Positions 2,545 through 59,839 are shown, counted from the first letter of the stretch. The stretch is DNA of 64,000 bases from Dipteris shenzhenensis (GCA_047967505.1 CM106538.1), one strand, 5' to 3'. The notes: generated by a model not told the origin, from the letters alone. A program made the numbers and translations.

Positions 2545-2651
2545 GGGGGTTTTTTATTTATCCTCATGATTTCATGATGTATTCCGCTTTGAGCTTGCTT
2601 TCGCGGGTTTTTTCTCTTACTTAATAAAAGTCTTTTTCTTGGAAAAAAAAA
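1..2651 (+). mobile_element. L1-clade LINE, 3' portion (ORF2 RT plus C-terminal Cys-rich region, 3' UTR, A-tail); runs off the window start
   Basis: Non-LTR RT motifs LDFDKAYDRVDW (from base 10), RQGCPLAP and LADD; zf-RVT-like CPRC...HCLWDC near 1958-2012; AATAAA at 2623-2628 and A9 tail at 2643-2651 that cuts off the Gypsy RT on the opposite strand. Confidence 0.92.
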
Positions 2652-4975
2652 TTTTGAAAATATCCAAAATATCCATCACACACATTATACTTTTCATACC
2701 CTGCCACTCTATCCAATATATCATTAATAAAAGGAAGAGGATAATGATTGCTTTTTGTTACCGCATTGAGAGATTTGTAATCAATGCATACTCTCCATCC
2801 TCCTGTGTGCTTAGGAATGATTACCACTGAACTGTCCCAATTTGAACGCTCCACTGGATATATCAGCCCAGCCTTGAGCAACTTATTTAACTCCTCTCTC
2901 AACACAGGCAAAAGCTCTGTGTGTGTCCTCCTCAACTTCTGAAAAACAGACCTGTTGCCTTCTTTTAGCTCAATGTGCATTGGCTCACATCTGAAACCCC
3001 TGATGTCTTCATGTGAGGTAATAAACAACTTTGGATACTGATGAATGACCTTCATATACTCCTCCTTCTCCACTTCTTCCAGACTGAAATTCAGCATGGA
3101 CATCAATATCTCTTCTCTCTCTGTCTGGGAAGGTGGGGGTTGCATCAAGTTATCCATGTCTTCAAGCTTACTCTCCTCCTTAGCTTCTTGTATCTCTGCT
3201 CCCTGCAATTCATATGCATCAAACTCCTTCAACAGAAATGATACTTGTCCCTCCTCCTTAGATGTAGTACTTTCTTCTTCCGTCTCACTGTCTAACTCCT
3301 CTTCCATGCTGGTTTCTTCTGGTTCTTCTTCTATTTCCCGTCTGCTGCTCATATCAAATTTATTGGCCTTTCCCTTCTTATTATGCATTGTAATTGTACC
3401 CATCTTCCAGTTTTGTATTGCTCCCACTCTGAGCCAAGGTTTGCCCAAAATCAGCGGGTATGCTCCCAAACCAGCAGGCATAATGTGGCAATTAATGCAA
3501 CATGATACTCCAAAAGCATCCACTACTACTCCCGTGCATATACCCAGACACTTCACCTTTGCATGATTTGCCAAATGGAGCCTAAAAGCTGAATGTGCAT
3601 TCAATTTTAGCCCCAACCTCTCCATACATGCTTGAGTCATGACACTTATCTATGCACCGCCATCAACATATGCCTCTCCAACACTCATACCTCCACACCG
3701 TGCATCCACTGCAGGGCATAAATCTGAAAGATCTTCCATGGACATCATCTCCGTTTCTCCTCTCGTAGGTTCCTGCTCATTACTTTTCCTGGGATCAGCC
3801 AACTTTTTCCATTCTCTCTTGAGCTTCGGGCACAAACCAAGTAACTGTGCAAAAGTTATATTGGCTGTCCTCCCCTTCAAATCATTCATCAGTGTTCCTC
3901 TTGTCCTTGACCAATATGCAAATCTGAAGTTTTATAATGTTTCTTGGGCCTCCGACTCTTCTCTTTAGAAGACTGAGGGCTGAGATCAAACTCCACATGC
4001 TTCCCTTTTTTTGCAGAGGGTCCATTTTCTCCTGTTGCACTCCTTGTTCTCTTTGCCACTGGCATGATCTCCGGAATAGTCTCCACCCTAATCAGGCTGA
4101 TTGCCTTCCCTTTTCCCTTATCTTCCCATTTGACTCCACTAGTAGAGGGTTGATTCAAATCCTTCACTTCCACATTAAAGTCTCTTGACATGCCATTTGT
4201 CTTCTGCATTACAAGATAAACTTCTCCACCTACTCTTGCTGGTTTATCACAGTGAGGGCTGATATCTCCTCACTCTCCACAATTCCAGCACTTCACATTG
4301 CTCATGTATCCCCGTCCTCTACCTATTCCAACTGAATTTACTTCACTCTCAGCCTATGCATCTCTCTTGTTATTTTGCACACCTCGACCTCTTCCTCTTC
4401 CTGCAGTCTCCATCCAGTTCAGACTGAGTGACTTCATAAGCTCTACAGCATCATGTAAGTCCTTCAGTAAATCATCCTGCATAGAAATAGACACCGGCTC
4501 CCTCTCTACATAAGCCTTTATTACTTCTGGACTTCCAATCAGATTCTTAGGCTCTTCTTACATGCCAAGCTGCTGGCTAGCTATGAAACGATCACACTTG
4601 ATCATCTGAGGTGGTACCTCCGGAACAAGAGCTTCACACCATAAACTCCATAATCTCCCAAACTGGATTGATTCACATCTTGTTCTTCCTCCTGTCTCAC
4701 TTTACACAACTCTTTCCAAACCTCATTAGAAGCAAGGAAGGCTGCTCTCACCACTGTATACTCTGGATTTTACTGTTGAGGATGAGCAGTCCTAAAGGTA
4801 GCAACTTAAGTCTCCAGCCATGCTTTTGCATCTCCCTGCAAGCAATATTTCATGATCTGAAACAAAATCTCAAGGGTTGCCCTATCTTTCATAAGTGCTG
4901 TAAATTCCATCTTTTCCAGGAACCTTACTGCATTCTCATACGACATCCCCAATACTCTAGAAAGTCCTATGCCAT
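2652..4975 (-). pseudogene. gag-pol: Gypsy gag-protease-RT polyprotein remnant
   Basis: ORFs 3889..4209, 3650..3889 and 2621..3640 carry gag, aspartic protease and RT motifs in Gypsy order (PR then RT), with stops and frameshifts. Confidence 0.85.
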
Positions 4976-5068
4976 CCTCACAATCCTACAACTGCCACAC
5001 CCCGGCTTATCTCAACCACAACAAAACTAGAAAGCAACAAAGCAAACACACTACTGAAGAAGCTCACT

Positions 5069-5239
5069 CTACATCCGAAGAGCATTCTTTTTCCTACGGG
5101 CAAGCACTTTCAGAGCTCTCTGCACTTTGGCATGGAGTCGGATCACACGTAGCGGGACTTCAATGCATCTATCCTTCCTGTGACCACACCCTCTGCACCA
5201 CTCACAGTGAATTACTCTCATGTGCGGATTTCTTCCCAT
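5069..5239 (-). CDS. Small Cys/His-rich basic ORF upstream of Gypsy gag, function unknown
   Basis: MGRNPHMRVIHCEWCRGCGHRKDRCIEVPLRVIRLHAKVQRALKVLARRKKNALRM; 35 of 47 residues match the ORF at 44675..44869 (hand alignment), with many synonymous differences. Confidence 0.65.
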   Translation of the reverse strand: MGRNPHMRVIHCEWCRGCGHRKDRCIEVPLRVIRLHAKVQRALKVLARRKKNALRM

Positions 5240-28630: not shown

Positions 28631-28746
28631 CCCCCCCCCACACACACATACACACTTTTTTTGGTAAAATCCAGTGTATTTATATTCTCATAAATTTACT
28701 CCCACACACTGACATTAGACTCCAAAAGAGAGCCCAATGGAAGAAC

Positions 28747-32447: not shown

Positions 32448-32494
32448 AGAAGATATGTACAGTCTAACCAAAAAGCAGAGTAAAGTATAAGCTG

Positions 32495-33700: not shown

Positions 33701-33747
33701 GAAGAGAAACAGGGCAGGATTGATGAAATGGCAGAAGCAGAGCATAA

Positions 33748-34090
33748 CTGTACGGACAAGGAACAGGCTGAAAGTACGAACTGTACGGAATGTACAAATC
33801 GTACGGATGTACGGAAGAGAGTCTGAGGGGGTGGAGTCGTACGGAAGGTGACAGGAAGCGCAGAGGCTGTACGGAGTGCAGAGATGGAAGGAGCGGCTGA
33901 CGCAAAAAGGCGAGGCAGGCTGTACGAAAAAGGACGAAGGGTACGGCTATACAGCGGGGACGAAGGTCGAAGGACGAGCAGATGTGGCGGGGCTGCGCAG
34001 GGAAGAAGCGAGCTGTCTGTACGGCGTCCGTACAGTTGTACGGGCAGAGCGCGGGACTGAACGGAAGCCTGACGCGGACCTGTACGGAGG
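33748..34090 (-). repeat. Dispersed GTAC(G) motif cluster in LINE 5' UTR
   Basis: About 14 GTAC cores in about 340 bp by hand count, mostly GTACGG on the + strand. Confidence 0.85.
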
Positions 34091-34221: not shown

Positions 34222-34614
34222 TGTCATGATTTGTGACGTATTCCTTTCTTTATGACTTATGGATGGTTTGATGAATGGACACTTGTGGAAGGGTATGCTC
34301 TTTCGACGGGACAATTCCTATGAGGCACAACCTTTCACAAGAGACATTCTATTGAAAAGACACTCCTATTGTAATGTACCCTCTCATCAAGGGTCACACC
34401 CTTCACAAGGGGTACACACCTCTTCATGCACATACACTTTGGAGTACACACCTTTTCATGTGTGACTCTTCACTCTCTATATAAGAGAGGCCCAACTGTA
34501 TGGATGACACTACAGACACTCAAGCAATACAAATATTCCTTGTTCTCTCCTATTTCAGTCTCCTTTCTGTTCCTTAGCACATTTCTAAATATAGTAAATC
34601 TAGGATTTCTTATA
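34222..34614 (+). repeat. 5' LTR of chromovirus
   Basis: Direct repeat of 41206..41604; TG...TA (CA mutated); TATA-like CTATATAAG near 34477. Confidence 0.95.
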
Positions 34615-34615
34615 G

Positions 34616-34627
34616 TGGTGTCAGAGC
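34616..34627 (+). promoter_or_regulatory. Primer-binding site, tRNA-iMet type (one mismatch)
   Basis: TGGTGTCAGAGC versus canonical TGGTATCAGAGC, 1 nt after the LTR. Confidence 0.85.
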
Positions 34628-36632
34628 AAATTTCGCTCCTGCCTGTAGGAAATGCCCCCCACCTTCTAGCGCCTATCTGTAGCGCCTATCTGATACATCT
34701 CTTTCCGCTAGAAGGATATCCGTGCACATTGTGCATGGAAGAGATGGAGAGAATGAGCGTAAAAATTTTTAGCGCCAACCCCACCTAAAGTCATCAATGG
34801 CCTCTCCATCTCCCCCACATCACGAGTTGATGTGAATGGACACGACAAAAATCGTGTCTTTTGATGTGCTTGGGCTGTCCCAAAACCAAGGGACACACCT
34901 TTTCCACCATCGGACACACCTTTTGATGAAGAGTTTCTCACTCCTCACCCAAGGGACACACCCCATCGTGGAAAAAAGGACACCTCTTTTCGTGTGAGGA
35001 CACCCCTTTTTAAAACAGGGTCACACCCCTTCATGAAAAGGTACACCTATTCCAAGGGTCACACCCCTTAGAATAGGCACACCTTTTGGCACCAAGCACC
35101 ACCCTACAAAAGGGTACCTAGAGGGCCTAAAAAGGGCAACCAGCCCTAAACCTAAGGCTCAACCCAAGATTACCCTTGTGTTCAAGTAACCCAACCTTTA
35201 ATTTTTGGGAAAAGCAAGGCCTAGCAGTTATTGCAGCCTTCGCAAATTGGCCTTTGGCGTCTCGTACATCGCGCCCTCTTCTCGAAAGTCACGCCTGCTG
35301 TTCTGTACAGTCTGTTCATGTCGATTCTGCCCCTCCCTTGCCGATTTCTTCTTGCCAGCCCACGCCAAGCCTGCTTGCCAGCCCACGCCAAGCCCACTTC
35401 AAGCTTGCCGTTTTCTGTTTGCAGCCTTGTGCTCAGCCTTTGGCGGCCTTCCATAGTCGCGCAAATCATGCCCTCAGCCTTCTATCTGTTCGCCAGCCTC
35501 TGCTCAGCCATGGATGTGTTCCATCGCCCTGAAGAGTGACAGCCTGACGCCCATTTCTGCACAGCCTGCTAGATCTCTTCACCTCACCATCTCAGCCTGC
35601 GAACAGAGGCCTTGTTGTTCAGCAATTTCCCTTAGCCAGCCCCTCTTGTACAAGAAAACCTCGCCTCTACACATCAGATCGAGATCCTGTGTGGTTCGTG
35701 GTTTTGCTGGCAACATCTTTCTGCCCACAACCGGACTGTTTGCTCGCTGAATCGCCTCCCTCTAAAGCAAACCCTAATTTTGAAACTTGAAGCCTGACAT
35801 CAGGACCTCCTTCAGCTCGCAATTGATGCTGTACTTTTTCCAGCCCGAAGCCCACCGCTAGTACACGCTTTTCAGCACAGTCGGGCAGCTCTAATCTATT
35901 CCAGGTGGATTCTTTCCATTCTATTTCTAAGGATTCTCTTTCATATTGTTATTTGACGCTCATTATCAAATTACAGCAAATGAAAGCCGCCTCCTTAAAG
36001 CATGGAAACCCCTGGTAATTCCCCAGTCCCTTCAAGGACACCTCAGGCATCATCTACCACACAATATCGTGTTTAGATTGCACAACCAGCCCATTTCAGA
36101 GCTTTTGCATCGTGGGTCTTCTGTGTCACGTGCCCTTCCAGTGACTTGGACCACATCCTATACCTTCTGCGTGAGGCACCTCAATTACATTACTTCCTCA
36201 GCATAGTCCTGGTTGTGTTCCACGAGACACGTAGATACCCAGAACCCGATATTCCTCACAAGTTTGCTGTCCATCTTTGCAGAGACTTTTACCCCTCAGC
36301 TTCAGCATCTCCAGGGTACTCTCCACCTCCTTCAGCTCCCAGATATCCTCCTATACAAGTTGTACCTTCCCCAAGACAGTATTTACACTCTGAAGGCACT
36401 CCTTCTCCTGGATATCCTCCACTTCTGACAGCAGCTCCTTATCCATTCTCAGATCCGTGGACTCTGCAACCTACCCCTGTACTCTCATGAGCAATAACAC
36501 CCATTTCGGAATCACCAGTGTTACCTCAGACAGGACCTCCTTTACCAGATTTCCACGGCTGGTTCCATCCTGTTTCTCCTGCCCCCTCCAACATGAGCAA
36601 TCTTAGGGAGCAGCCCGAATCTTCTTCCAGGA

Positions 36633-39600
36633 ATGGTACAAACTAGAGCGCAGGTTCGTGCTCTTCTCACAGGGACCTCAGATATGTCGCAACGCTCACG
36701 TGCAGCCTCTCCGGAGATAAGCGACTCAAGTCCAAAAAAGACCCCTGAAGTCAACTTACAAGGCGAAGCACTACTTCAACTTCAAATTTCCCAACTTCAT
36801 GACAGCATCTCCGACTTGGTCCAGAAGGTCCAACAACTCCAAGATTCTCGCAGTACCACACATACAGAGGATGACGTGATGCAACCAGACGACTATGTGG
36901 ACTCATTCCCCCCTAAGGTAGAAAACACTGAACTCTGTGCCCTCTACCGGTTACTCCAAGCTTCCAAAACTAAAAGACTTGACATTAAACTTCCGGAAGC
37001 CTACACTGGTCAACGAAACCGCCGAACAGTTGACCAATGGCTCGCAAAACTGCGCATGTACTTTGATACTGTTGACCTCACTGAAGGCAAAAAGATTGCC
37101 TTGGCAGCCTCCCTCCTCAAGAATACAGCTTTCCTATGGTGGCAACGACGCTTAAAGGACGGCAAAAGTGTGTTAACTTGGTAACGTTTTGAACACGTGC
37201 TCCGTAAGCACTTCATACCTACCAATGCGGACTTCCAAGCACGATCAAAACTCAAACAGTTGGAGCAAACAGGGTCCCTATCTTCCTACATCTCTCAGTT
37301 CACCACATGGGTACTAGAGATTGATGGTTTAATTGATGATGATCGCCTTCATGCTTTCATCTCAGGCCTAAATCCCTTGTTACGCATTGATGTCCTCAAA
37401 GCAAACATCACCACCACAGCTGGTGCTATTGCTTACACAGAGCGCATTACTGATTTCCAAAACACAGGAAAGCAGAGTGCTAATAGAACACCGAACTCTA
37501 CTATGGCCAAAGGTGCTCGCCCTCAAGATAACCCCAAGTTTAGAAAAAAATCGGGTAATCAAGGTCAACAACAGTCTCAAGATCCCCACAAGTCTCAGAA
37601 ATCGTATGCTGGATTCCAACAGAAGCACTCCTCCAAGGATCGCGCCTCTTCTTCTTCACAAAGTCATCACCGTCATCCCCAACATAAAGGTGCGGCCACT
37701 GATAAGAAGAACAACTCCAACACAAAAGGACTTTGTACCATCTATACAGGCGACCATAGATGGTTCGATTGTCCCAAGCGACCAAAGCAAAATTCCAATA
37801 TGGAACCTAGCACTTCCCAAACAAAAGATGCTACCCCAGCACAAGACAAGAAAGGAAAAGCTGTTCGAATGGCAAATACCATCCACATGAGCCTTGCCAG
37901 CAACCCCGGCGAACCTTCCCTGGCCACTCAAGTACTTTGTGTTCAAGGATCGATTCGTGGAACAACGGTCACTATCCTCATCGACAGTGGCTGCTCTCAT
38001 AACTTCCTAGCTAGTTCTATGGTTGACAAACTTCGGTTGACCACCAGTCCTAGTCCTATGGACTATCAGATTGAACTCGCAAATGGAACTACCTTCTTGT
38101 GCAACACCACGATCAAAAACTTGTCTTTTCGCATCCAACATTATACGGACAAGTTGAACTTCGACATCATGCCTCTTTCTTGGTACGATGTCATACTTGG
38201 ACAACAGTGGCTCTACGACTATGATCCATCAATCAGTTTTCACAGCCATACTATCCAGTTTGTCCACCAAGGAAAACTTATTGAGCTAACTGGTTCTAGG
38301 GACTCTCCTTCAACCCCAGTTGCCTCTACCCTACAAGTAAAGAAGTGGGTTCGTAAACATCAAGTAAAGACTTCACTTCTGTTGGTTACGGCAGTTTCGG
38401 AGTCACCAACAAAGGATCCTCCTGAATACCTCAACCAACCTTTTTTCCAACCCTACCTGGATATTTTTCCACAGGAATTGCCAAAGCAGTTACCACCTCG
38501 ACGACTAGTGGATCACCCAATCGAACTTATTCCCGGCAGTAATCCACCGTCGAAACCCCCTTATCGGGTTTCTTACACTCAAAATGAAGAAATCCAAAGA
38601 CAAGTGACCGAACTACTCGACAAAGGTCACATTTGGCCCAGTCGCAGCCCTTTCGGATCTCCTGTACTACTTGTGGAAAAAAAGAATAAGTCAATGCGCC
38701 TCTGCATCCACTACCAGGCCCTCAACAAGCTCACTATCAAAAATAAGTATCCATTGCCTCGCATCGATGACCTCTTCGATCAACTTCAACATGCCACACA
38801 ATTCTCAAAAATTGATCTTCATTCAGGTTATCATCAAATTCGCATATGAGAAGGCCATGAGTACAAGACAGCTTTTCGAACAAAGTATGGACACTATGAA
38901 TGTTTGGTCATGCCTTTTGGGTTAAACAATGCCCCGGCCACATTCATGACACTAATGAACCACATCTTCAGGCCTTTCCTCAATAAGTTCGTCATCGTTT
39001 ACCTCGATGACATCCTCGTTTTCAGCAGATCCCTACATGAGCACAAACAACATCTTCACCAAGTTTTTGAAGTTCTCCGCGCAAATTGTCTCTACATCAA
39101 CATTGAGAAGAGTGAGTTCTTCAAGACCCAACTCGAATATTTGGGACATGTTATTTCAGCTCAAGGCATCTCTGTGGATCCCAAGAAGGTCGAGGTAATC
39201 CGAAACTGGCCTACTCCTAAGAATGTTCATGATGTCCGCTCTTTTCTCGGATTGGCAAACTTCTACCATACAAAGGTCTATCAGTTTTCCAAAATCACAG
39301 CTCCTATGTCCGAATTATGGAAAAGCACAGTAGTTTTTCAGTGGCTTGCCGAAACAGAGTATAGTTTCCAACAACTCAAACAAGCACTCACTACCACACC
39401 AATTATGGCTATTGCTGACCCAAACCTTCCATTTGAGGTCATGACCGATGCTTCCGACATCGCTACAAGAGCAGTCTTGATGCAAGTCACTCTCTAAAGT
39501 ATATCTTTACTAGTATATCTTTACTCAGCCAGTCATGAACGCTCGACAAGCACGCTGGGTTGAGTTTCTGGCCAACTTTCACATGACCATTGAGTACATT

Positions 39601-41145
39601 CCAGGACTACGCAATGTAGTTGCAGATGCTCTCAGCAAGTTAACTCTAGCATCAGCTATGGTAATCTCTACATTACCTGTGGATGTTCCGAATTCATTCA
39701 AAGGGAAGTATTTCAATGATAAAGACTTCGGCACAGCAATACAAGTTCTTTCAAAAGATCAACCTTCGACTTTCGAACAGAAGATTTTCTCATCCTATTC
39801 TTATACGGATGACCTTCTGTATTATCAAGATCGCGTCTGTGTACCACATGATAAGGATGTTCAACGTCTTTTGTTAAAAGAGCATCATGTAGTTCCTTAT
39901 GCTGCCATCTAGGCATCAACAAGACTTATAGGTTACTCAGTACAACATACTACTGGCCTCAGATGAAAAGCGACATCATCAAAATGGTTACATCTTGCTT
40001 ATCTTGCCAACAAATGAAAGCAAGCCGACGACTTCCAGCAGGACTTCTTCAGCCTCTTCCAGTTCCAACTGAAAGGTGGGAAAGTATTTCCATGGATTTC
40101 ATTACCACACTACCACGATCCTCCCGAGGTAACACTCAGATTATGGTAATTGTTGATCGATTGTCCAAAATGGCACACTTTGTTGCTTGCAAAAGAAGTG
40201 CACAGGCTCCGGACATCGCCAAACTCTTCATACAACACATCTTCTGACACCATGGATTGCCCAAGAATATCATATCCGACAGAGATCCTAAGTTTACCAG
40301 TCACTTTTGGATTTCACTGTTCGAATCTTTGGGTACAACTCTACTGTTCAGTTCAGCCTACCACCCAGAATCAAATGGCCAGACTGAAAGAGTCAACCAA
40401 GTTCTGGAAGAAATGCTTCGACATTATATTCAGTCATGCCTAGCAGCTTGGGAAGAGTATCTACCACTCCTTGAGTTTGCTTATAATAACTCTTTTCATA
40501 GTGCCATCAGCATGACTCCATTCCAAGCAGCTTATGGACACACTCCGATCGTACCAACGAATTTTGTACTTCAACATCGAGTGGCCCTAGCTGATCAACT
40601 GGTTCAAGAAATGCACGACATTCTACTCCAAGTCAGGGATCATATGCGAAAAGTGTAAGAGCGGTATCAACGGTTTGCCAACAAACATAGACGTCACCTG
40701 GAATTTGACGCTAGTGACATGTTGCTATTATTTGTAGCCCCACATCGCTATAAGACGGTTAAGTCTGTGTTTCCTAAGTTGCGACCAAGATACTATGGAC
40801 CTTTCCAGATCGTCAAGAAAAATTCACCTTTAAGTTACAAATTGGAATTACCACCATCTGGGGTAAAATCCATCCGACATTTCATATTTCTTGGCTAAAG
40901 ACGTACATTCCAGGCGATGAAGCAGTTCCTCCTGCAGGTGATTATGTCCCAGAAATCGAAGATGATTATGTTCTCCTTATTCTTGAGCGTATTCTGGACC
41001 ATCGACAGCGAGAGACTCGACATCGACTAATCACGGAATTCCTTGTTCTTTGGCGAGATCTGGACGACTCCGACACTACTTGGCAATCTGATGAAGACTT
41101 ACAGCAGTACCCTGACATTTTACAGCAATATTTTCAGAATTTACC
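36633..41145 (+). pseudogene. gag-pol: Gypsy gag-pol with chromodomain; several stops, frameshifts and a deletion in RNase H
   Basis: gag AFLWW and [84 protein letters not shown]; chromodomain ERILDHR...EFLVLWRD...TW near 40980-41085. Confidence 0.94.
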
Positions 41146-41205
41146 ATGATATTTTCTACATCAGTTCATTATCTCCACCAGGGTCTTATTTTGAGTGGGA
41201 GGGGA

Positions 41206-41604
41206 TGTCACGATTTGTGACGTATTCCTTTCTCTATATCTTAGACTTATGGATGGTTTGATGAATGGACACTTGTGGAAGGGTATGCACTTTCGACGGG
41301 ACAATTCCTATGAGGCACAACCCTTCACAAGAGACATTCTATTGAAGAGACACTCCTATTGCAATGTACCCTCTCATCAAGGGTCACACCCTTCACAAGG
41401 GGTACACACCTCTTCATGCACACACACTTTGGAGTACACACCTTTTCATGTGTGACTCTTCACTCTCTATATAAGAGAGGCCCAACTGTATGGATGACAC
41501 TACAGACACTCAAGCAGTACAAATATTCCTTGTTCTCTGTTATTTCAGTCTCCTTTCTGTTCCTTAGCACATTTCTAAATATAATAAATCTAGGATTTCT
41601 TACA
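41206..41604 (+). repeat. 3' LTR of chromovirus
   Basis: TG...CA, preceded by PPT and followed by the TSD. Confidence 0.95.
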
Positions 41605-42906: not shown

Positions 42907-44548
42907 TGATAGGACAAAACTTGTATCAAATTTTTGAGCACTGTATATAGCTATGGGTAGGCACATAGTTATACACATCTAGGGTAGGTGTGGGCTTTTG
43001 GCATTTGTGGATTTTTCCTTCACAAGCATAATGGACTAATGTATAGTTTTTTGAGACAATAAAGTATGTTTTGCAGGGACTTCATGGGAAATGATGAAAT
43101 GCAATGTGGTTGTACCAGACCTCCAGACCAAGGGTATCCAGTGTGTGGTCAAGTGAAAATGTTTTTGGGGTCATGTAAAATCAAGTCATGAAGGGTTTTT
43201 TTTTTTTTTTCATGAGTCAATGTGGTCTTGCATGTTACGGGAATTTGATATGTTCTAGTGTCCATGTCAAGGGGCTTTTCATGTGGGTGTACGGGGGTGC
43301 ATGTAAGTCTTAATGTGCATGCTAATGTGTGTGGGAATTGTGTGACCAAAGGTCCAAAATGTGCATTTAATGTGCCTTGGGGGATATTTGCATTTTTTAA
43401 ATGGAAGAGTGGTAAATTCTACGTGATGACGTGGCTGGAAAATCTAGAAGGGAATGTATGCATGCAAGGTGGCTACGTGATTAAGGATTGGGATGCTCTG
43501 GCTGAGGAGTGGGCTGATACCTAGGATGGCGACTACCAGAGAGTTCTGAAAAATGTGGATGAGCGGAAGAGATGAGGTTGGGGGGAAAAAAGCAAAGAAG
43601 GAGAGAGGAGAGGATCTGCTGGTCGATGAACGGATGGTTCACAGGCTCCAAATTGTTGTACAAGAGCACTGCGTCAGGGTGTAGAGGACTGTGACGATCT
43701 GAGAGAGCGATTGGGCTGTGTAGGGCTGTCAATGCGATGTGATGATCTGAAAAAAATAGCACAGGGCTGATGGGCTGTTAGCTGAGCGGAGAGCTGTAGT
43801 ATGGAAGAGAAGAGATAGGCTGACGATTAGCTGAGCGGAGAGCTAACGGACTGATCGACATGAAGTACGAGTCGCTTATTTTTTTGGGCTGTGGGTTTGT
43901 TACCTTTAATCACGCACAAGTGTGCAGGCTGCGTGGGGGAGCTTAGCTGGAACAGAAGACAGATTGGGAGTTGTCGCTGCTGGAAGCACTCGTGATGTGG
44001 CTGCTTACAATTCTGAGTATGACGTACAGCTTGTGTGCAGATGCAATAGTGACTGAACGGAAGTCATGATAGGGATCAGGGACTTTGATCGTTGAGGTTT
44101 CATGAATCTATAGGTGGAGTGGATGACTCGATGGATTAGCATTCTTGGGGGTTCTTTGTGCATGAGGATTCCATACGAGAAGCATAAGTACGAGCTGTTT
44201 TACTTATACAAGCTGCTGGAAGAAGGTGTTGTAGATACATCATGTGTGGTTGATCTGTCGTACAAGGAACGACTGTGTGTATGAACAACTCTTGGTTGAC
44301 ACAGAGCTACAACAAGTCAAAGCCTTCTTTCCCCTCTTTCAAAGAGTTTGTGTGTTCCTGTGTGTGTTCTAGTCAGATTGTGTGGGAGATTGACTTGTTA
44401 TTTGTGTGCTCTGGATACCTACTCTGGAACCTAGTTCATAAGCTCGTCATCTATGAGACCACATTGCAGCTGATCCCTATGAAGTCTCAGCTATTTGACG
44501 TGGTGAAGTACATAATTCCTGGTTGTCTTTCCTTTTTTTTCCTTATCA
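42907..44548 (+). repeat. 5' LTR of Tat-type Gypsy
   Basis: Closely similar direct repeat of 47904..49544. Confidence 0.95.
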
Positions 44549-44674
44549 TCTTTTTCGCGATCCTGCTAGGGACAGGAGGAGTTTTGAATTGAGATTGGAT
44601 ACTCAAGACAAAACGGCCCAGAAGATTGGCTGGGGAATGTTGCTTGAATTTCTGTGTGGTTAGGGATTGAAACT

Positions 44675-44869
44675 ATGAAGACAAAGCCTCGCATGAGAGT
44701 GATTCATTGTGAGTTATGTGGGGAGTGTGGACACAAGAGAGATAGATGCCTTGATGTTGAACTTTGGGTGATACGTCTCCATGCTAAGGTTCAAAAGGCT
44801 TTGAAAGTGATTGCTCTTAGGAAGAAGAATGCCAGTCAGATGCAGGGTATGTTTTCTTCAGTAGAGTGA
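44675..44869 (+). CDS. Small Cys/His-rich basic ORF upstream of gag, homologue of 5069..5239
   Basis: MKTKPRMRVIHCELCGECGHKRDRCLDVELWVIRLHAKVQKALKVIALRKKNASQMQGMFSSVE; stop lies 81 nt before the gag ATG at 44951. Confidence 0.68.
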   Translation: MKTKPRMRVIHCELCGECGHKRDRCLDVELWVIRLHAKVQKALKVIALRKKNASQMQGMFSSVE

Positions 44870-44950
44870 TTATTTTGTTTTCTTCGCACAAGAGGTTGGG
44901 TGGTATTTCTGGTTGGAAGTGTGTTTGAGATAAGTTAGTCAAGAGGAGAG

Positions 44951-47870
44951 ATGGCTCATGAATTTCCTTGATTTCACGGGTTGCCCAATGAAGACCCAGA
45001 GAGGTTTTTAGAGTGCTTGGAGTTCACAGTTCTTATTAAAGACAAGAATGCTCCAAAAGTCCTTCTTCAGATTCTATCCTTTTGTCTGTTGGGAGAAGCG
45101 AGAACTTGGCTGCAGACTTTCTCTGCAAGGATGCGTGTTACCAACGGCCCCTCGCACTATCAGGAGAATTCAGATCTGATTTTATCACCTTTCCTGGATA
45201 AATTTTGTAAAGTGTTTATTGATGACATCTGTGTCTACAGTGGAAGAAGAAAGCACTGCGGCAAGCTGGATCAAGTATTCTATGAGATTGATAAAAATGG
45301 TGGTCAATTAAATCCTAAGAAGACTCAGTTAGCTCAGACCAGCATTAAAATATTGGGGCATATTGTATCTGAGAATGGGATTGAGCCGGGACCAGGTAAC
45401 GTGAAAGCTTTAGTTATGCTGTCCTCTCTTGAGAATACCAAGCAGTTGCATACCTTTCTCCAGAAGGTGAAGTATCTGTCGAGATTTATTCATATGTTAT
45501 CTCAGATTTTGTATCCTCTTCATCAGCTGGTAAAATCTAAGCCTCTAAAATGGACGACAGAGAGTGAAGAGGCGTTTGAGGCAGTTAAGGAATCCTTGAC
45601 TCATATTTCAAGTGTAAAGCCACCAGATTATTCCAGGACTTTTTATGTGAATCCATCCGTAGGACCAGATGCTATTGGTGCTATTCTTTTGCAGCAAGGA
45701 GAGGGTTCCAGATATATGAGGCCAGTCTATTATGCCAGCAGGGTGAAGACTGAAGTAGAGAGGAAGTATTCAACGGCTGAATTGGTCCTGGCTAGCCTCT
45801 TGTATGCTTGTAGGAGATTTCGGTCTTATCTATTGTCCAGACCTTTTGAGGTTCTCACCTCATGTTCACTACTGTCTCATATGTTGAATAGTACAAACAT
45901 CTCCAGGAGCATGATTAAATGGATAGTAGGGTTACAGGAGTACTCTTTTACCTTCTTGGTTAAGAACTCTACCAGAGCTTCCTTGGCTGATCTCCTCACC
46001 TATAAGGAAGGACCTATTTTAGTTGAAGATGTGGAGAAGAACACTGACATGAATGAAGAAAAAGTACTAGAGGATGCATTTGTTTTACACTTTGATGGAT
46101 CTTACAAAAAAAGTTTAAATAAAAGTACAGGAGGAATTGTCATTTATGATCCTGGAGGAAAGGAGATTCGAAAAATGGGAATTTAGCTCGAAGCCAGCAG
46201 TAATAATGAAGCTGAATATGCAGCCCTCTTCGAAGGTTTGAAAGTATGCATTAGTCTGGGTATTAAGAGACTCAAGATTAAGGGAGATGCTCTGTTGGTT
46301 GTGAAGCAAATTTTAGGTGTCTCGAAGGTTAAGCATGTTCATTTGAAGAGATGGATAAGCGCGGTGAAGAAACTGTTAAATCAATTGGATGCCTGGACAC
46401 TCCAGCATATTGAAAGAGGTAAGAATGTAAATGCACATGATGCTGCGCAGGAAATTACAGCAACTTATGCTGATGCAATAGGAGTGCAGGAGCACTTATA
46501 CAAAGGAAGGGAGACATTGGCTTGTGAGGAAAGCTTCCTGTTAACTGGTAAAGTGCCTGAAGAAGTTCAAAAACAAAGAAAATACAGATTTATTAAAAGC
46601 TGTACTTATTATTGTCTGATAGATGATGTTCTTTACATGAAAGGGGCTGATCTGGTGCTTAGAAGAATTCCCTGGCATGAGGAAGTTTTTCATATTCTAC
46701 AAGCTAATCATGAGGGAGTATGTGGAGGACATTTTGCTTTCAAAATCATGCTGAGGAAAATACTTACAGAAGGGTATGTGTGGCCATCCCTCTAGAGAGA
46801 CATAAGACATTGGTGCAAGTCATGCCTACAGTGTCAGCAGATAAGTAAGAGGATCGTACATCCAGAACTCAGAAATATCATGCCTGCTTATAATATTTTT
46901 GAGAAATGGGGAATAGATGCCATTGGTCCTCTACCCATGACAGCCAGGGGAAATTGTTATGTATTGACAGCTGTGGATTATTTGACGAGATGGGCTGAAG
47001 CACGCGCAGTACGGGCAGTCAATGCAAAATCTGTATGTAAATTTGTGTATAGGATATCTGCTGTAAATTTGGTGTGCCACTGGAGCTGCTTTCTGATAGA
47101 GGTTCAGGTTTCAGGAGTGAACTGATGGATTTATTATGTGGTAAGCTGAAGATTAAACACAGATATGCAAGTCCCTATTATCCTCAATGTAATGGGATGA
47201 ATGAAAATTTTAATGGGGTGTGTACTAATATCATGGGAAAGATCATGAGAACACGTGAGAAGGAGTGGGACCTTGCTTTGCACTGGGATTTATGGGCTTA
47301 CAGAGTTGCAGTAAAATAAGCACCCAGTTTTAACCATTTCATCTTGTTTACGGGAAAGAAGCTCTATTACCCTTGGAAGTAGAAATTCTTGCATTACAGA
47401 TGTTAATGAAGATAAACGAGGATTCAAATTCTACTTTCTAGAACCGCTTATTGCATTTGTAGGAAGCACAACTAGACAGACAAAAGGCGGTGGAACATTA
47501 TGATTTAATTCAAGAGGAGAATCAGAAGAGAGCAAACAGGAAATTCAGGAATAAGAAAATCGAGGAGGGTGATCTAGTTTTGAGATACAACAATAGTCTG
47601 GACACTACCTTCAAGAAGAAATTTGTGACCAAATGGGATGGACATTTTCGTGAGACGAAGAATTCAAAAATGGCTCATATCAACTTGAGAATTTGGATGG
47701 TCAGTAGCATAAGAATAGAGTCAATGGCTTCAGACTAAAGAAATACTTTCATAGGATCATGAGTGTGGGCAGATGTGAACCTACTGTGATGAGATCAAAC
47801 AAGCCGGAAGACCTCATGGATGAGGATATCTCTGAAGAAATGCAAATCTTATATAGCCCTATCTGCAAGA
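44951..47870 (+). pseudogene. gag-pol: Deleted gag-pol: gag N-terminus fused to RT C-terminus, RNase H, archaeal-type RNase H, integrase
   Basis: EDPERFLE...LLGEARTWL then TNGPSHYQ...FIDDI; PVYYASR...YSTAEL; HFDGS...NNEAEYAAL...GDALLVV; H...GGHF...YVWP, WGIDAIGP, LSDRG, YPQCNG. Confidence 0.92.
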
Positions 47871-47903: not shown

Positions 47904-49544
47904 TGATAGGACAAAACCTGTATCAAGTTTTGGAGCAATGTATACAGCTGTGGGTAGGCACATAGTTATACACATCCAGGGTAGGTGTGGGCTTTTGGCA
48001 TTTGTGAATTTTTCCTTCACAAGCATGATGGACTAATGTATAGTTTTTTGAGACAATAAAGTATGTTTTGCAAGCCCTTCATGGGAAATGATGAAATGCA
48101 ATGTGGTTGTACCAGACCTCCAGAGCAAGGGTATCTAGTGTGTGGTCATGTGAAAATGTTTTTTAGGTCATGTAAAATCAAGTCATGAAGAGTTTTTTTT
48201 TTTTTTTTCCTGAGTCAATGTGGTCTTGCATGTTACAGGAATTTGATATGTTCTAGTGTCCATGTCAAGGGGCTTTTCATGTCGGTGTACGGGGGTGAAT
48301 GCAAGTCTTAATGTGCATGCTAATGTGTGTGGGAATTGTGTGACCAAAGGTCCAAAATGTGCATTCAATGTGCCTTGGGGGATATTTGCATTTTTTAAAT
48401 GGAAGAGTGGTAAATTCTACGTGATGACATGGCTGGAAAATCTAGAAGGGAATGTATGCATGCAAGGTGGCTACGTGATTAAGGATTGGGATGCTCTGGC
48501 TGACGAGTGGGCTGATATGTGGGATGGCGACTACCAGAGAGTTCTGAAAAATGTGGATGAGCGGAAGAGATGAGGTTGGGGGGAAAAAAGCGAAGGAGAG
48601 AGGAGAGGATCTGCTGGTCGATGAACGGATGGTTCACGGGCTCCAAATTGTTGTACAAGAGCACTGCGTCAGGGTGTAGAGGACTGTGATGATCTGAGAG
48701 AGCGATTGGGCTGTGTAGGGCTGTCAATGCGATGTGATGATCTGAAAAAAAAAAGCACAGGGCTGATGGGCTGTTAGCTGAGCGGAGAGCTGTAGTATGG
48801 AAGAGAAGAGACAGGCTGACGATTAGCTGAGCGGAGAGCTAACGGACTGATCGACATGAAGTACGAGTCGCTTATTTTTTTGGGCTGTGGGTTTGTTACC
48901 TTTAATCACGCACAAGTGTGCAGGCTGCGTGGGGGAGCTTAGCTGGAACAGAAGACAGATTGGGAGTTGTCGCTGCTGGAAGCACTCATGATGTGGCTGC
49001 TTACAATTCTGAGTATGAGGTACAGCTTGTGTGCACATGCAATAGTGACTGAATGGAAGTCATGATAGGGATCAAGGACTTTGATCGTTGAGGTTTCATG
49101 AATCTATAGGTGGAGGGGATGACTCGATGGATTAGCATTCTTGGGGGTTCTTTGTGCATGAGGATTCTGTACTAGAAGCATAAGTACGAGCTGTTTTACT
49201 TATACAAGCTGCTAGAAGGAGGTGTTGTAGATACATCATGTGTGGTTGATCTGTCCTACAAGGAACGACTGTGTGTATGAACAACTCTTGGTTGACACAG
49301 AGCTACAACAAGTCAAAGCCTTCTTTCCCCTCTTTCAAAGAGTTTGTGTGTTCCTGTGTGTGTTCTAGTCAGATTGTGTGGGAGATTGACTTGTTATTTG
49401 TGTACTCTGGATACCTGCTCTGGAACCTGGTTCATAAGCTCATCATCTACGAGCCCACATTGCAGTTGATCCCTATGAAGTGTCAGCTATTTGACGTGGT
49501 GAAGTACATAATTCCTGGTTGTCTTTCCTTTTTTTTCCTTATCA
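47904..49544 (+). repeat. 3' LTR of Tat-type Gypsy
   Basis: Direct repeat of 42907..44548, preceded by purine tract GGGGATGGGCAAAA. Confidence 0.95.
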
Positions 49545-51850: not shown

Positions 51851-54277
51851 ATGGAGGACAAAGATTCTACTGTTGCCTCTTCATCCCCTTCTCTTCCTTC
51901 CTCCTCCTCCAGATTCCTCTCATTTACAATCCCGAACTTCGGAGAGTCACGGAAGCTAGACGGGTCAAACTACCCGATCTGGAAAATGAAGGCCCGGAAG
52001 TTGTGGAAGCTAACGACGGGCGTGGAGGCAAAATTGGAAGACTTGTTGGACAAGGGGAAGATTCTCATTCCAATGGATGGTGAAGGGCTTGAGAATTGGG
52101 AAGAGAGAGATGCCCACTCCCTAGCATTAATCATTGGGACCACGGCGGACTTTGTTCTTCTGCACATCTAGGTAGCCGAGACGTCTGTAGAGGCATGGGC
52201 TATCCTGAAAGATTTGTATGAAACGGACAATACATCTCGGATTTTGATGCTCCAACACCAACTATATAACCTGGACATGAATGAGGGAGACAATGTTCAT
52301 GACCATCTGACAAAAGTCAAGATGGTGAGGGACCAGCTCGCGGCAGTTGGTCAGAAGGTAGAGTCAAGTCAACAGGCACTGTTGACCTTACACAAGCTAC
52401 CTAGAAGCTTTAATAGTTTCGTGACTACGGTCACTGCAGGGCAGAGGACCAAGCCTCTCACCTTCGAGGAGCTTGGGCCTTTACATTGCAGGAAGAGGCT
52501 CGAGAAAAGCTGTTTATGCAATCAGACAAGAAGGCTCTCGTGGCGAGGGACAAGCCCGGCAAGGGTAAGTTCAAAGACTCCAAGAACAAAAACAAGACCG
52601 AGGATGCAGAAAAAAAGAGGCAGATGAAGTGCTTCTACTGTGAGAAGCTTGGTCATTCCGCTAAAGAGTGCCGCAAGAAGGTGGACCTAAAGAAGAAGAA
52701 GTCCAAGACCAAGGAGGAGCCAAAGACCGAATCGGCAGACGTTACGACCGGCGCACTCTTCATCATCACTGAGTACTGCTTATGTAGTCAGTGAGTACTG
52801 CTTATGCAATCAGTGAGGGAGAGGAAGGTTGGTATGTGGACAGTGGAGCTTCAAAGCACATGTCCAACAAGAAGGAATGGTTCAAAACCATGGAAGGTAC
52901 GCATCCCAATTGCAAGGTCACTGTTGGGGATAACCAATCATGCCCTGTGAAGGGTGTCGGTAGGATTCCGTTCATTACGACTGCAAGAAACGAGGAGCTG
53001 ATTTCCGGTGTACTGTATGTACCGAATTTGTGCAAGAACCTATTGTCTGTCAGTCAAATGGACAAGCACAATATGTTGGTATTATTCGACAACGGCAAGG
53101 TCACTGTCACATCCAAGGCAAACGGACAGGTGGTGGCTCAAAGTGTTGAGAAGCATGGGCTATATCAGCTCAACCCTCTGTTGGTGCACGGGGACCATGG
53201 AAAATCCAGATTATGGCACAAGCGGTTCGGTCACGTCAACTATCGCACTCTCTCCGGGATGCAAAAGACAAAGATGGTGGATGGACTTGCACCGATTGCA
53301 GGCAATGATCGTGTCTGCAGGGCTTGCATGGAAGGCAAGCAACACAAGGACAAGTTCCCACAGGAGGCCTCATCACGGGCCAAGAAGTGGGATATAGCAA
53401 GGAGTCCAAGGCCTACTGCCTATTCGACCTAGACAAAAAGAAGATCCTTATCAGCAGGGATGTGATCTTTAAAGAGACCAAGCCACAACCTGCCGAGGAG
53501 GTTTCAGAACTTCTAGCGTTACCCCCACACAAAGTCACCATCCGCGAGGTGGAGCCAACTAAAGACCCCGAGGAGGAGGAGCATGCCATTCCAGAGCCAG
53601 CTCCCAAGTCAACTTCATCAAAAGTACCTCCATCTGAGAAGAAGCTACCTCAGTGGTATTTAAAGACGTTAGCAAACTCACGGGTCACAGACATACCCGA
53701 GAGCAGTTCCGGAGTGTGGCGGTCTCAAAGAAACATGAAGACTCCCTCCGTGAACTTCGCTTTGGTAGCTCAACTTGCGAAGCCCCGTTCCTTCCAGGAA
53801 GCGAAGGATATACCAGAATGGCAGGAAGCCATGAAGTTGAAAAATGACACCTGGGATTTAGTGCCCAAACCAACCAAGCAGAAAATCATCGGGACTAAAT
53901 GGGTGTACAAGCTTAAGTTCAAGTCAAATGGGAGCTTGGACAAGTACAAAGCAAGATTGGTGGTGAAAGGCTATGCACAGTCAGAAGGACTTGACTTCGA
54001 CGAGACCTTTGCCCCACAGCTAGGATGGTGACTATTCAGACAGTCATTGCCTTGGCTGCTCATCACAGTTGCCCTATTTTTCAGATGGACATCAAGTCTG
54101 CATTTTTGAATGGTAGCCTGGAGGAGGAGGTATATGTGGCACAGCCACCAAGATTTCAGATTCTAGGATCCCCATCAAAATTCTGCAAGCTGAAGAAGGC
54201 CTTATAGGGGCTGAAACAGGCCCCCAGAGCTTGGTACCAGCGGATAGATGTTTTCTTTCAGAAGATAGGGCTTCAAC
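51851..54277 (+). pseudogene. gag-pol: Outer Copia gag, protease, partial integrase and RT 5' part
   Basis: KLDGSNYPIWK, CFYCEKLGHSAKEC, WYVDSGASKHM, LWHKRFGH...CRAC, then directly GYSKESKAY; KWVYKLK...KYKARLV, QMDIKSAFLNG. Confidence 0.92.
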
Positions 54278-54539
54278 TGTAGGATCGAATGAAAGAGAGA
54301 GAGAGAGTGCAAGTAGCAAAGAGTCGCACGAGTCTTAGCCGTCAAAACTAGGATAATGAAAAATAGGAGTACAAGGTACTTATACCTAGACCTAAGACTA
54401 AGTGTCCTAGGTGTCACATAGGACTAAGTGTCCTATGTGGCCTAAAAGGCACTATCACTACAAGTGCCTACATTTATGCCTACAAGGCACATACCATGGC
54501 CTATAGGGCATCACTAGAACCACCAGAAGATGGCCTACA
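54278..54539 (-). repeat. 3' LTR of nested Copia
   Basis: Differs from 59840..60099 by a few substitutions and one GA unit. Confidence 0.96.
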
Positions 54540-54667
54540 AACCCCCCTCCATGGGATGGGCTGAAGTACTCTGGAAACGTCTCAGAATACGTGGTATTTT
54601 CTGGTCTTGCTGGCACATGTTCATCAAAAAGGATATAGCCACCTATGAATGTACATGGGGTGTCAGA

Positions 54668-57600
54668 TCATGTAACAAAGGGAACCAAGTGTAAAGCATG
54701 TCGGAAGACTTCGAACTTGGGACGAGGAAGTGCCTTTGTAAACATATCTGCTATGTTGTCCTCTGTGGGAAGATAGGACAACTCTATGTCTCCTGCTGAC
54801 AACCGCTCCCGAACATAATGATAGTGAACTTCAATATGCTTGGTACGCGCATGAAACACTGGGTTACGCGCAATGGCCAAAGCACTCTGGCTGTCAGTGT
54901 AGACAATAGTGGAGGATGTCTAGCAAATACCAAGATCTGTACGTAACTGTCGAAGCCAAACACACTCTACTGTAGCGGTGAAAGCTGCCCTGTACTCAGC
55001 CTCACAGCTAGACGTGGCAACTGTTTGTTGCTTCTTGCTGAGCCAAGAGATACATGAATTGCAAAGAAAAAAACAATTGCCAGTATGTGACACTCTGGTG
55101 TCGGAACATCCTGCCCAGTCACTATCCGTGTAAGCATGCATGGTAAGTGAACCATGATCACCATAGAAGAGGGCTAAATCCTGAGTGCCTCTGAGATATC
55201 TGAAGACTCTCTTCACTGCCTGCCAATGCTGTGAACCGGGCATGTGCATGGATCTAAGAGTGATATCACATGGTGGGCTCCCATCATGAGCTGAGAATTT
55301 GAAGCTTGCAATCCTCAAACTGAAAACGATCAAGGAGCTGTCCAATATACTTGGACTGAGACATCATGATACCCCCCTCAACATGAGCAAACTGAATGCC
55401 CAAATAATAATGGAGCCGTCCCATGTCTGACATATCGAAAATCTGCTGCAAATCAGCCTTGAAAGCTGCAAATTGCTGAGTATCTAGGCCCATGATGAGC
55501 ATATCATCCACATATAAAATCAACACAAAAAAATCAGATCCACTCCCACGGACATAAAGAGTGGGTTCTGTGGGACTATTCTGAAAACCAAGGGATAGTA
55601 AGTGTGCATGAATTTCGGCATACCATGCCCTAGGTGCCTGCTTCAAATTCTAAGCCGGCATACCTTATTTTCAGAATTAACAACCTCAAAGCCAGGAGGT
55701 TGTGTGACATAGACTTCTTCCTGCAGATCCCCATGAATAAAAGCAGTCTTGATGTCAAGTTGGTGCACTTGCCAATGATGATGGGCTGCAATGGCAATGA
55801 CACATCTAATGGTAGTAATCCTGGATGTGGGAGCAAATGTCTCCTCAAAGTCAATGCCTTGTTGTTGGGCATACCCTTTTGCAACAAGACGGGCTTTGTA
55901 TCGATCTATGCTGCCATCAGATTTCCTTTTTAATTTGTAGACCCACCGCGTTCCAATGGCATGCTTGCCGGAAGGGAGATATACTAATTCCCATGTGTCA
56001 TTTTTTGCAATAGATTGTAACTCAGCTCTCATTGCATCCATCCACTCTTTGCTGTCAAAAGCATCTTTATGGCACAGAGGCTCTTCATTGCAAGCTGTAG
56101 CAAGGAGTGCAAACTCAAGAAAGTGACCATGCTGTCTGTTCCCTGATCTTGTCCGGGCAGCAAAACGCTGATCTTGTTTGCTGTCCCTCAATGTATCAAG
56201 AAGCCACCTGGGAACTTGCCTTTGCTGTCTATTGACAGCTCTTTCTTCAATGACTGCATCATGAGTAGTGGGATCATTTTGTGCCGGAAGAGAAACCTGC
56301 AAATCAGCATGAGGTTGTGGCTGATTATTGCTTAGTGGAGGGCCTGCAGGAGGCTCATGTTGCTGGTCAAAATCCTCTTCTGATGATGGCAGAGGTAACC
56401 AAGATTCAAAGGCATCAAACATGTCAACATCTGGCTTTGCTTTGCAGTCCACAAGAGGAGAAGCTGAATGTTATCAAAGATCACATCTCTACTGACAATA
56501 ATCTTCCCAGTATTTGGTTGATATAACCGATACCCTCTCCTTTCCTAGCTGTAACCAATAAATATGCATTTGATTGCCTTGTCATCAAGCTTATGTCTCA
56601 GCTGAGATGGTACATGAACATATGCAAGAGACCCAAAAACTCTCATGTGTGAAAGTGAAGGCTTCCCGCCTTTCCATGCTTCATAAGGTGTAATAGTCTT
56701 CAATGCCTGTGTAGGTGATCTATTCAACACATAGTTGGCACACATTACTACATCAAGCCAAAATTTATTGGGCAAAGACTTGGCCTTAAGCATGCATCTG
56801 GCCATCTCCATTGTGGACCTGTTTTTCCTTTCAGAAACAGGATTCTGCTGAGGAGTGTAAGGAGTAGTGCATGAGTGAATAATGCCCCGTGAAGACAGAA
56901 ATGCATCAAACTCCTTTGACATATACTCTCCCCCCCTATCTGTGTTGAGGGTGACAAGCTTGCATCCTGATTCATTCTCAACCATACTCAGCCATCTCTG
57001 AAAGCATAAGAAAACTTCAGATTTGGCCTTTAAAGGATATACCCAGCAATATCTTGTGAAATCATCAATGAGAGTCATGAAATACTTATACCCCCCAATG
57101 GCATTTGTCCTCATTGGGCCACAGACATCACTGTATACTATTTGCAATTTCCTTTGTGAGAGTTTTGGACAATTCTTTTGAAAAGGAAATCGATGCATCT
57201 TACCCAAAAGACAACCCTCACACACATGTTTGAAAACTGTGTGAGTCTGAGGTACATCATTTGCCATCTGCTGTGAATGTAGCTTTGCAAGAGCTCTATA
57301 ATTGAGATGGCCCATTCTCTCATGCCAAAGATGACTTTCAGCAAGCTGTGAATCTGAAATAGCCAATGTTTCAATAGAAAGTGCAGCTGAATGATGATCA
57401 AGGTGATAAAGCCCTTTTTGCAAAGTGCCAGTGAGAACTATGGCATTGTCATCACGAAGATCATAAACTAGACATCTGTAGCCATCAAAAATCACTCTGA
57501 AACCTGAAGTAGCAATTGCTGAAATTGAAATCAAGTTGACTTCAATGCCAGGCACAAAAAGAACATTTGTCAGAGTGACAGGATGGCTTGAAATGCATGT

Positions 57601-59797: not shown

Positions 59798-59839
59798 TCC
59801 GATGAGTAGGAGACGAGTCTACCTTAGCTCTGATACCAC

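Follow-up and report, generated by a model that had tools for sequence, protein, structure and literature searches.

A small reading frame with a zinc-knuckle motif, conserved ahead of gag in two retrotransposons of Dipteris shenzhenensis

In a stretch of 64,000 nucleotides from Dipteris shenzhenensis (GCA_047967505.1, CM106538.1), hereafter the window, two long terminal repeat (LTR) retrotransposons, which we call elements A and B, carry a small open reading frame (ORF) of 64 and 56 codons, respectively, directly ahead of gag. The ORF lies at the same place in the leaders of two families that are saturated at synonymous sites. Its pattern of substitution indicates a real protein-coding ORF under purifying selection at the protein level. 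The explanation we favour, with a confidence that is about evenly balanced, is that it represents an extra gene of one Tat-clade Ty3/gypsy lineage, encoding a nucleocapsid-like RNA-binding microprotein and serving at the same time as an upstream ORF before gag.

The two copies and the constraint acting on them

44675..44869, plus strand: small ORF, copy A, 64 codons plus stop, MKTKPRMRVIHC...RKKNASQMQGMFSSVE (translation, tblastn)
5069..5239, minus strand: small ORF, copy B, 56 codons plus stop (translation, tblastn)

The initial annotation had placed the ORF at 44675-44869 (+) and 5069-5239 (-), and both copies are found there in the sequence. They align without gaps over 56 residues, 38 of which are identical (68%), and the identity of 35 of 47 residues claimed for the core from MRVIHC to RKKNA was reproduced by our alignment. 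Within the window, tblastn finds one copy from the other with E-values of 3.5e-23 and 2.5e-23, depending on the direction of the search; as the next match follows only at an E-value of 0.24, there are exactly two copies in the window. No insertion or deletion interrupts the 168 aligned nucleotides of the two ORFs, the flanks of which align poorly. The stop codon of copy B comes 8 codons before that of copy A, which has a sense codon there, and in both copies an additional ATG is found six codons upstream of the second methionine, as had been described.

The small ORF has the layout of an upstream ORF. In element A it lies on the sense strand between the end of the LTR (44548) and the gag ATG (44951), with a leader of 126 nt between the LTR and the ORF; element B is laid out alike, with its gag ATG at 4975, and the ORF is placed ∼80-126 nt past the 5' LTR. 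The small-ORF stop codon and the gag ATG are separated by 81 nt (element A) and 93 nt (element B), within the 80-95 nt proposed earlier, and gag opens with ATGGC in both. The first ATG of the small ORF has a purine at position -3 in both copies. We also observed that the ATGs of the small ORF and of gag share a frame in both elements, 276 nt apart in A and 264 nt apart in B, which may be a coincidence, with a chance of 1 in 3. A continuous reading frame from the small ORF into gag was excluded, as two (A) and four (B) in-frame stops separate the ORF from the gag ATG and the spacer is devoid of peptide similarity.

The two copies differ at 45 of the 168 aligned positions, and these differences fall on first, second and third codon positions in a ratio of 8/12/25 (chi-square p 0.005). 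By the method of Nei and Gojobori, applied pairwise to A and B, the proportions of synonymous and non-synonymous differences (pS and pN) are 0.668 and 0.162 over the 56 codons (dN/dS 0.11) and 0.713 and 0.122 over the 47-codon core (dN/dS 0.06), with 23.5 synonymous changes on 35 sites versus 21.5 non-synonymous changes on 133 sites over the small ORF. When 45 differences were placed at random, 29.2 ± 2.4 amino-acid changes resulted, compared to the 18 observed, and 18 or fewer were obtained in none of 5000 trials. The two other sense frames contain several stops in both copies and all three antisense frames are interrupted by stops in A, so that only the frame of the small ORF is open in both copies and the third-position periodicity cannot stem from another frame; an antisense gene as its source was ruled out on the same grounds. 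The purifying selection proposed in the initial annotation is therefore upheld by a dN/dS of 0.06-0.11, rather than one near 1, by the 8/12/25 periodicity, and by the closure of the five other frames in at least one copy. Because synonymous sites are near saturation, the similarity between A and B must be old and does not result from a recent exchange between the families.

Constraint on the small ORF is tighter than on the adjoining gag N-terminus. There, 21 of 46 residues are identical, in agreement with the lower similarity that had been reported, and over the first 46 codons pS reaches 0.86, a saturated value for which dN/dS is not computable, and pN 0.288.

Further copies were sought in contigs of four public sequencing runs with near-identical sequence (X1-X4), which inform on presence and variants only. 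A 420-nt contig of X1 is colinear with element A over 44559-44976, with 9 substitutions and 2 indels, both of which (44624 and 44872) lie just outside the ORF and none within it. Compared to copy A, the family variant differs in the ORF at 44736, 44765, 44781 and 44850, which correspond to K21R, W31R, H36R and M59K, and this four-position variant is the commoner family form in runs X1-X3. As two of these substitutions, K21R and W31R, restore in the X1 contig the residues of copy B, copy A carries private changes there. The ORF thus appears intact in at least one further copy (the X1 contig), in a sample that is too small to gauge selection within the family.

The encoded protein and its possible relatives

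44708..44749, plus strand: CX2CX4HX4C zinc-knuckle motif of copy A, which contains an additional conserved cysteine within x4 (regular-expression match)
5165..5206, minus strand: CX2CX4HX4C zinc-knuckle motif of copy B (regular-expression match)
44762..44857, plus strand: predicted basic amphipathic helix of copy A, residues 30-61 (AlphaFold2)

As modelled, the product of 56-64 residues would consist of a variable short N-terminus, one CX2CX4HX4C knuckle and a basic amphipathic helix of about 30 residues. The pattern H-C-x2-C-x2-C-G-H-x4-C noted in the initial annotation is present in both copies and holds the canonical CX2CX4HX4C spacing, and the basic segment said to follow it was verified in the sequence. 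Six residues of the motif, H11, C12, C15, C18, H20 and C25, are invariant between A and B, which is one cysteine more than in ordinary knuckles. In a six-frame translation of the window the CX2CX4HX4C pattern occurs 6 times, 5 of them stop-free, as compared to a mean of 0.05 stop-free occurrences in 40 mononucleotide shuffles of the window. Among the other four knuckles, three are backed by zf-CCHC or copia-gag Pfam matches and one is stop-interrupted and lies beside a DUF4283 ORF; unlike these four, the small-ORF knuckle has no aromatic residue after its first cysteine.

The computed isoelectric points (pI) are 9.87 for A and 11.60 for B. AlphaFold2, run on the alignment of the two sequences, yielded a model with a mean predicted local distance difference test score (pLDDT) of 71, in which a helix over residues 30-61 is predicted with confidence, the two 10-residue blocks within residues 31-50 averaging 87 and 92. 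The binding of zinc and nucleic acid that had been suggested is plausible from the CX2CX4HX4C spacing, the six invariant cysteines and histidines and a pI of 9.9-11.6. A role as silencing suppressor or viral regulator, suggested alongside it, is not supported by any of these data.

PF00098 matches neither A nor B in a Pfam scan, and at E-values up to 10 only zf-C2H2_10 and zf-CCHC_4 appear for A and nothing for B. Pfam models as short as zf-CCHC often overlook single divergent knuckles. When the predicted structure was searched against the PDB with Foldseek, no match was obtained at E-values up to 10, and in a VIA-align structure search the best Z-score, 4.1, was a tie among generic single helices and coiled coils.

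Protein searches with copy A, both near its length and against longer proteins, and with the A/B alignment found no homologue. Against 1.84 billion representatives, phmmer reported 3 matches at E-values up to 0.001, all of them repeat proteins aligned over the knuckle or low-complexity segments only. The best, P0001 (E 9.9e-9, 44% identity over residues 7-28), is built of repeats of the form [KR]RVIHC-x2-CG-x2-GH-x4-C, and a search of the PDB by sequence returned only the knuckles of Air2 (3nyb_B), weakly, at an E-value of 0.053. The small ORF resembles these cellular CCHC proteins, P0001 and the TRAMP complex member Air2, in the flavour of its knuckle, sharing [KR]-R-V-I-H-C-x2-C-G-x2-G-H-x4-C with P0001. 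They are, in contrast, arrays of 4-7 knuckles spanning 83-317 residues, none of which matches the small-ORF helix (residues 30-56), and judged from the sequences the likeness appears confined to the motif.

Contig searches gave 64 pattern matches in metagenome contigs and 73 in viral contigs, none confirmed; no match in contigs to a degenerate DNA pattern for VIHCExCxxCGH; and 4 matches, none confirmed, in a contig search with the reverse transcriptase (RT) and RNase H (RH) protein of element A. Four loci from bacterial metagenome-assembled genomes that match 13-19 residues of the knuckle only were dismissed as chance at the level of the motif. In a protein atlas, the nearest clusters consist of unnamed proteins of 48-66 amino acids, among which a 64-member Streptophyta cluster of 60-residue proteins scores 0.92 with A and 0.84 with B and is taken as a lead only. 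The nearest named cluster has SWIM, a domain linked to Mutator-like element (MULE) transposases, in 17% of its members, which is a weak lead. Among the papers accessible in full text, none was found that describes a small ORF with a zinc knuckle ahead of gag.

Weighing the explanations for the leader reading frame

If the small ORF is an extra gene for a nucleocapsid-like microprotein, its knuckle would, judging from the module, bind zinc, and knuckle and basic amphipathic helix would bind nucleic acid. The likeliest target would be the full-length RNA of the element itself, on which the protein could act as a free-standing single-knuckle nucleocapsid, in chaperoning, packaging or export. Its position suggests a second effect, in that translation of the small ORF would gate, by reducing or timing it, the access of ribosomes to gag: a long ORF that lies upstream and whose first ATG is preceded by a purine at -3 would, when translated, have to affect that access. 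Ribosomes would then arrive at gag through leaky scanning or reinitiation, by a logic as in the leader ORFs of plant pararetroviruses, and conserved non-coding blocks after the stop codon may help in reaching it. A bolder version, which we put forward tentatively and regard as possible rather than probable, is a retrovirus-style accessory gene, whose stand-alone knuckle microprotein would act in trans on the RNA of the element (in packaging or export, as a translation switch or in protection from silencing), while the level of Gag would be set by translation of the small ORF.

Several observations weigh against the favoured reading. The copies number only two and both lie in defective elements: element A is internally deleted and its gag interrupted by a stop, and element B is truncated, with a gag decayed by a stop at codon 3 and by frameshifts. 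Since gag in B has a decayed knuckle of its own, the element had no need of the small ORF as a source of one. The knuckle part of the AlphaFold2 model is of low confidence (pLDDT 53-63), the Pfam match of A to zf-CCHC_4 stays below the cut-off (11.2 bits versus 27) and B is without any match, and the protein and contig collections searched yielded no homologue. All four differences in the ORF between copy A and the X1 contig are non-synonymous, one of them, H36R, alters a residue common to A and B, and a low-depth X2 contig lacks one base at 44863, in the non-conserved tail of A. Finally, copy A has a better RNA fold than shuffled versions of it (z -3.06), and conserved blocks out of frame beside the ORF point to a cis-acting constraint in the leader too. 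These blocks are:

44854..44879 (+) in A and 5036..5061 (-) in B: conserved non-coding block 1, 22 of 26 nt identical, pyrimidine-rich, ending in ...CAG TAG in A
44925..44934 (+) in A and 5006..5015 (-) in B: conserved non-coding block 2, TTGAGATAAG, 10 of 10 nt identical

The cores of both blocks occur at only these two places in the window, on either strand. Because of a 1-nt indel before it, block 1 stands in different frames in A and B, so that its conservation is not at the level of protein; with such blocks, the leader has a cis-acting constraint next to the coding one. With 22 of 26 and 10 of 10 identical nucleotides, the blocks are better conserved than the ORF core (75%). Block 1, pyrimidine-rich and with a CAG end, resembles a 3' splice site, and in A it is able to pair with AGGAAGAAGAA of the RKKN codons. 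The leaders further contain, shortly before the small ORF, a mini-upstream ORF that starts with ATGTT and has 8 codons in A (44637-44663, +) and 2 in B (5255-5263, -).

The first alternative is that the small ORF is a regulatory upstream ORF only, which throttles or times the translation of gag in cis, through a stalling peptide or through termination and reinitiation, and whose peptide has no job in trans; we consider this unlikely. In its favour are the length of the ORF, its place on the same strand directly ahead of gag (81 and 93 nt) with a purine at -3 in both copies, and the conserved non-coding blocks exactly at and past the stop codon; leader ORFs that steer translation are established in related plant pararetroviruses (PMC5902531). 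Conservation, however, extends across the whole 47-residue core and centres on the six cysteines and histidines and the helix, which speaks for a folded domain and not for an arrest motif. This alternative is also compatible with the favoured reading of a microprotein gene; both effects can coexist.

A second alternative starts from two sites at the 3' end of the ORF:

44847..44852, plus strand: donor-like GTATGT of copy A, which is GTAAGT (44850 T>A) in the common variant of runs X1-X3
5062..5067, minus strand: donor-like GTGAGC of copy B, aligned with the site in A and past the stop codon of B

The initial annotation had placed GTATGT and GTGAGC at equivalent 3' positions, which our alignment of A and B bears out, and had raised the idea of a spliced first exon. 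Here, a donor at codon 58 would join the knuckle and helix to gag or to a downstream exon, giving a product of more than 64 residues. Beyond the aligned sites, the GTAAGT of runs X1-X3 adds to the appeal of the idea, being closer to the splice donor consensus than GTATGT, as do the T-rich spacer, the shared frame of the two ATGs (276 and 264 nt apart) and an AG at 44945 in A that would make an in-frame join. A detail absent from the earlier description nevertheless counts against it, namely that the stop codon of copy B precedes the donor-like site. Moreover, a shared frame is expected in 1 of 3 cases by chance, the only in-frame acceptor of A is without a pyrimidine tract, and in B, which is decayed, none of three hand-checked candidate acceptors gives an open in-frame join. 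The X1 contig is colinear across 44559-44976, and no joint at the ORF was found in the contigs of X1-X4, which are unable to exclude a spliced form. The idea of a first exon thus fared poorly, and we regard it as decidedly improbable.

That the ORF is inert cargo, a decaying fragment captured from a host gene or a DNA transposon (e.g., the C-terminal knuckle of a MULE-type transposase), is still harder to reconcile with the data and seems very unlikely to us. LTR retrotransposons do transduce gene fragments (PMC7264820), the knuckle flavour resembles that of cellular knuckle arrays (P0001), and the SWIM found in 17% of the nearest named atlas cluster is a weak lead in the same direction. Both copies, however, sit in the same place with homologous leader patches on either side, and any capture would therefore predate the split of the families; since that split synonymous sites have become saturated at a pN of 0.12-0.16, where inert cargo would show a dN/dS near 1. 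Least probable of all is that the open frame is incidental to a cis-acting signal of the leader, at the RNA or DNA level, for packaging, dimerisation or a primer-related structure. Retroelement leaders do carry such signals, the adjoining blocks are identical at 22 of 26 and 10 of 10 nt, and copy A folds with a z of -3.06. In copy B, however, folding shows no gain over shuffles (z +0.24) and the minimum-energy structure is unlike that of A; the consensus fold, derived from just two sequences, is weak, with -22 kcal/mol and changes on both sides in 3 of 43 pairs; no Rfam family is found at threshold (the one sub-threshold match has 14.2 bits versus 65); and both the 8/12/25 pattern over codon positions and the synonymous excess (23.5 on 35 versus 21.5 on 133 sites) would be left unexplained.

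Host elements, known systems and significance

42907..44548, plus strand: 5' LTR of element A, with TG...CA ends, starting TGATAGG and ending TTATCA
44549..44674, plus strand: leader of element A from the LTR end to the small ORF, 126 nt, with no TGG-type primer-binding site directly after the LTR
44951..45137, plus strand: gag N-terminal remnant of element A, with ATG at 44951 and an in-frame stop at codon 7, ending at the internal-deletion junction
45138..47319, plus strand: pol remnant of element A, with RT C-terminus, RNase H, archaeal-type RNase H (RVT_3) and integrase core
47904..49544, plus strand: 3' LTR of element A, which matches the 5' LTR at 96.5% of 1644 aligned positions
2621..4975, minus strand: gag, protease and the N-terminus of RT in element B, truncated near 2620 by a plus-strand long interspersed nuclear element (LINE)

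The Pfam domains found in element A over 44972-47319 (+) follow the order RVT_1, RT_RNaseH_2 (E 1.4e-22), RVT_3 (E 2.5e-18) and rve. A second, archaeal-type RNase H (aRH) marks the Tat clade and lies between RH and integrase (INT) in Ogre and Retand (PMC6317226, PMC4408406), and the domain order RT-RH-aRH-INT accordingly identifies A, at the level of sequence, as a Ty3/gypsy LTR retrotransposon of the Tat clade. Its internal deletion fuses about 62 gag codons to the last third of RT near 45137. The contigs of X1 and X2 diverge from A exactly at 45137, which is expected if full-length relatives exist in those runs, and a contig of X3 represents another deletion form, in which 46553 is joined to 47423. 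The 5-nt flanks of element A differ, and no TGG is found in the first bases past 44548; the first 30 nt after its 5' LTR (44549-44575 region, +; TCTTTTTCGCGATCC...) are partly common to B.

Element B retains a decayed CCHC knuckle in gag near 4290, and since its gag keeps this knuckle the small ORF is an addition and no relocated nucleocapsid. The gag N-termini of A and B match in tblastn at 36% over 85 amino acids (E 9.5e-12) and the leaders align only in patches; A and B are different families, whose kinship is judged from these two regions and the small ORF. Upstream of the ATG of copy B, by ∼100 nt, lies a TATA-like run, CTATAAAGGTATATATAG, at 5343-5359 (-), which is ∼25 nt before the point aligned with the LTR end of A; the 3' LTR of B is outside the window.

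The window as a whole is a nest of retroelements, with further ones at 1-2544 (+), 6991-7914 (-), 27924-33946 (-), 34222-41602 (+) and 52172-60625. These include the LINE that truncates element B (RVT_1, zf-RVT), pieces of copia gag and pol, a LINE with endonuclease and a DUF4283 ORF1, and a second, unrelated gypsy element with 391-nt LTRs. The leader of the second gypsy element at 34222-41602 is without a similar ORF, and no ordinary host gene is present among the 25 ORFs scanned in the window.

Tat-clade elements are known to have sense ORFs ahead of gag (PMC4408406, PMC7264820), and for those between the 5' LTR and gag the class name eORF-5'F has been used in a survey of extra ORFs (eORFs) that was limited to ORFs of 250 codons or more (PMC6317226). 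Its domain table lists ATHILA ORF-1, the plant mobile domain (PMD), Transposase_28, DUF390 and a few others, and no zinc knuckle (PMC6317226). In Pfam at E-values up to 10, the small ORF matches neither PMD (PF10536), Transposase_28 (PF04195) nor ATHILA ORF-1 (PF03078), so that no described eORF domain of Tat, Ogre or Athila elements was recovered. The comparison with the long ORF of Ogre elements drawn in the initial annotation is apt as regards class, both being sense ORFs located 5' of gag in Tat-clade elements. Like the eORFs of Tat, Ogre, Retand and Athila, the small ORF lies on the sense strand between the 5' LTR and gag and is kept in more than one family; unlike those surveyed, with their 250 or more codons, it has 56-64 codons and a zinc knuckle absent from their domain list. 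It fits the extra ORFs of Tat-clade retrotransposons and differs from them in size class and domain.

With single-knuckle nucleocapsid (NC) proteins of retroviruses and retrotransposons, the small-ORF product shares one CX2CX4HX4C flanked by basic residues, and mature single-knuckle NC is near to it in size. By this analogy, nucleic-acid chaperone activity would be expected. NC is, in contrast, part of the Gag polyprotein, from whose C-terminus it is cleaved by the protease of the element, whereas the small ORF is separate from gag and ahead of it, and ordinary NC knuckles lack both its extra conserved cysteine (C-x2-C-x2-C-G-H) and the long predicted helix that follows.

In the Caulimoviridae, short ORFs in the leader of the pregenomic RNA steer ribosomes to the first large gene (PMC5902531). 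Likewise, the small ORF lies in the long leader of a reverse-transcribing element, ahead of the first large gene. Unlike the Caulimoviridae short ORFs, which to our knowledge are not conserved as peptides, it comprises 56-64 codons with a dN/dS of 0.06-0.11.

The known extra genes of plant LTR retrotransposons are long, heterogeneous and of undefined function, and the reference survey of them was restricted to ORFs with at least 250 codons (PMC6317226). If the favoured reading of a nucleocapsid-like microprotein gene is true, plant Tat elements could also carry micro-accessory genes of a retrovirus-like kind, and there would be a class of micro-eORFs invisible to surveys that require 250 codons. 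It would provide a small, easily made peptide with which to study the balance between the use of genomic RNA and the translation of Gag, and it would argue for re-scanning the leaders of LTR elements for small ORFs under selection.

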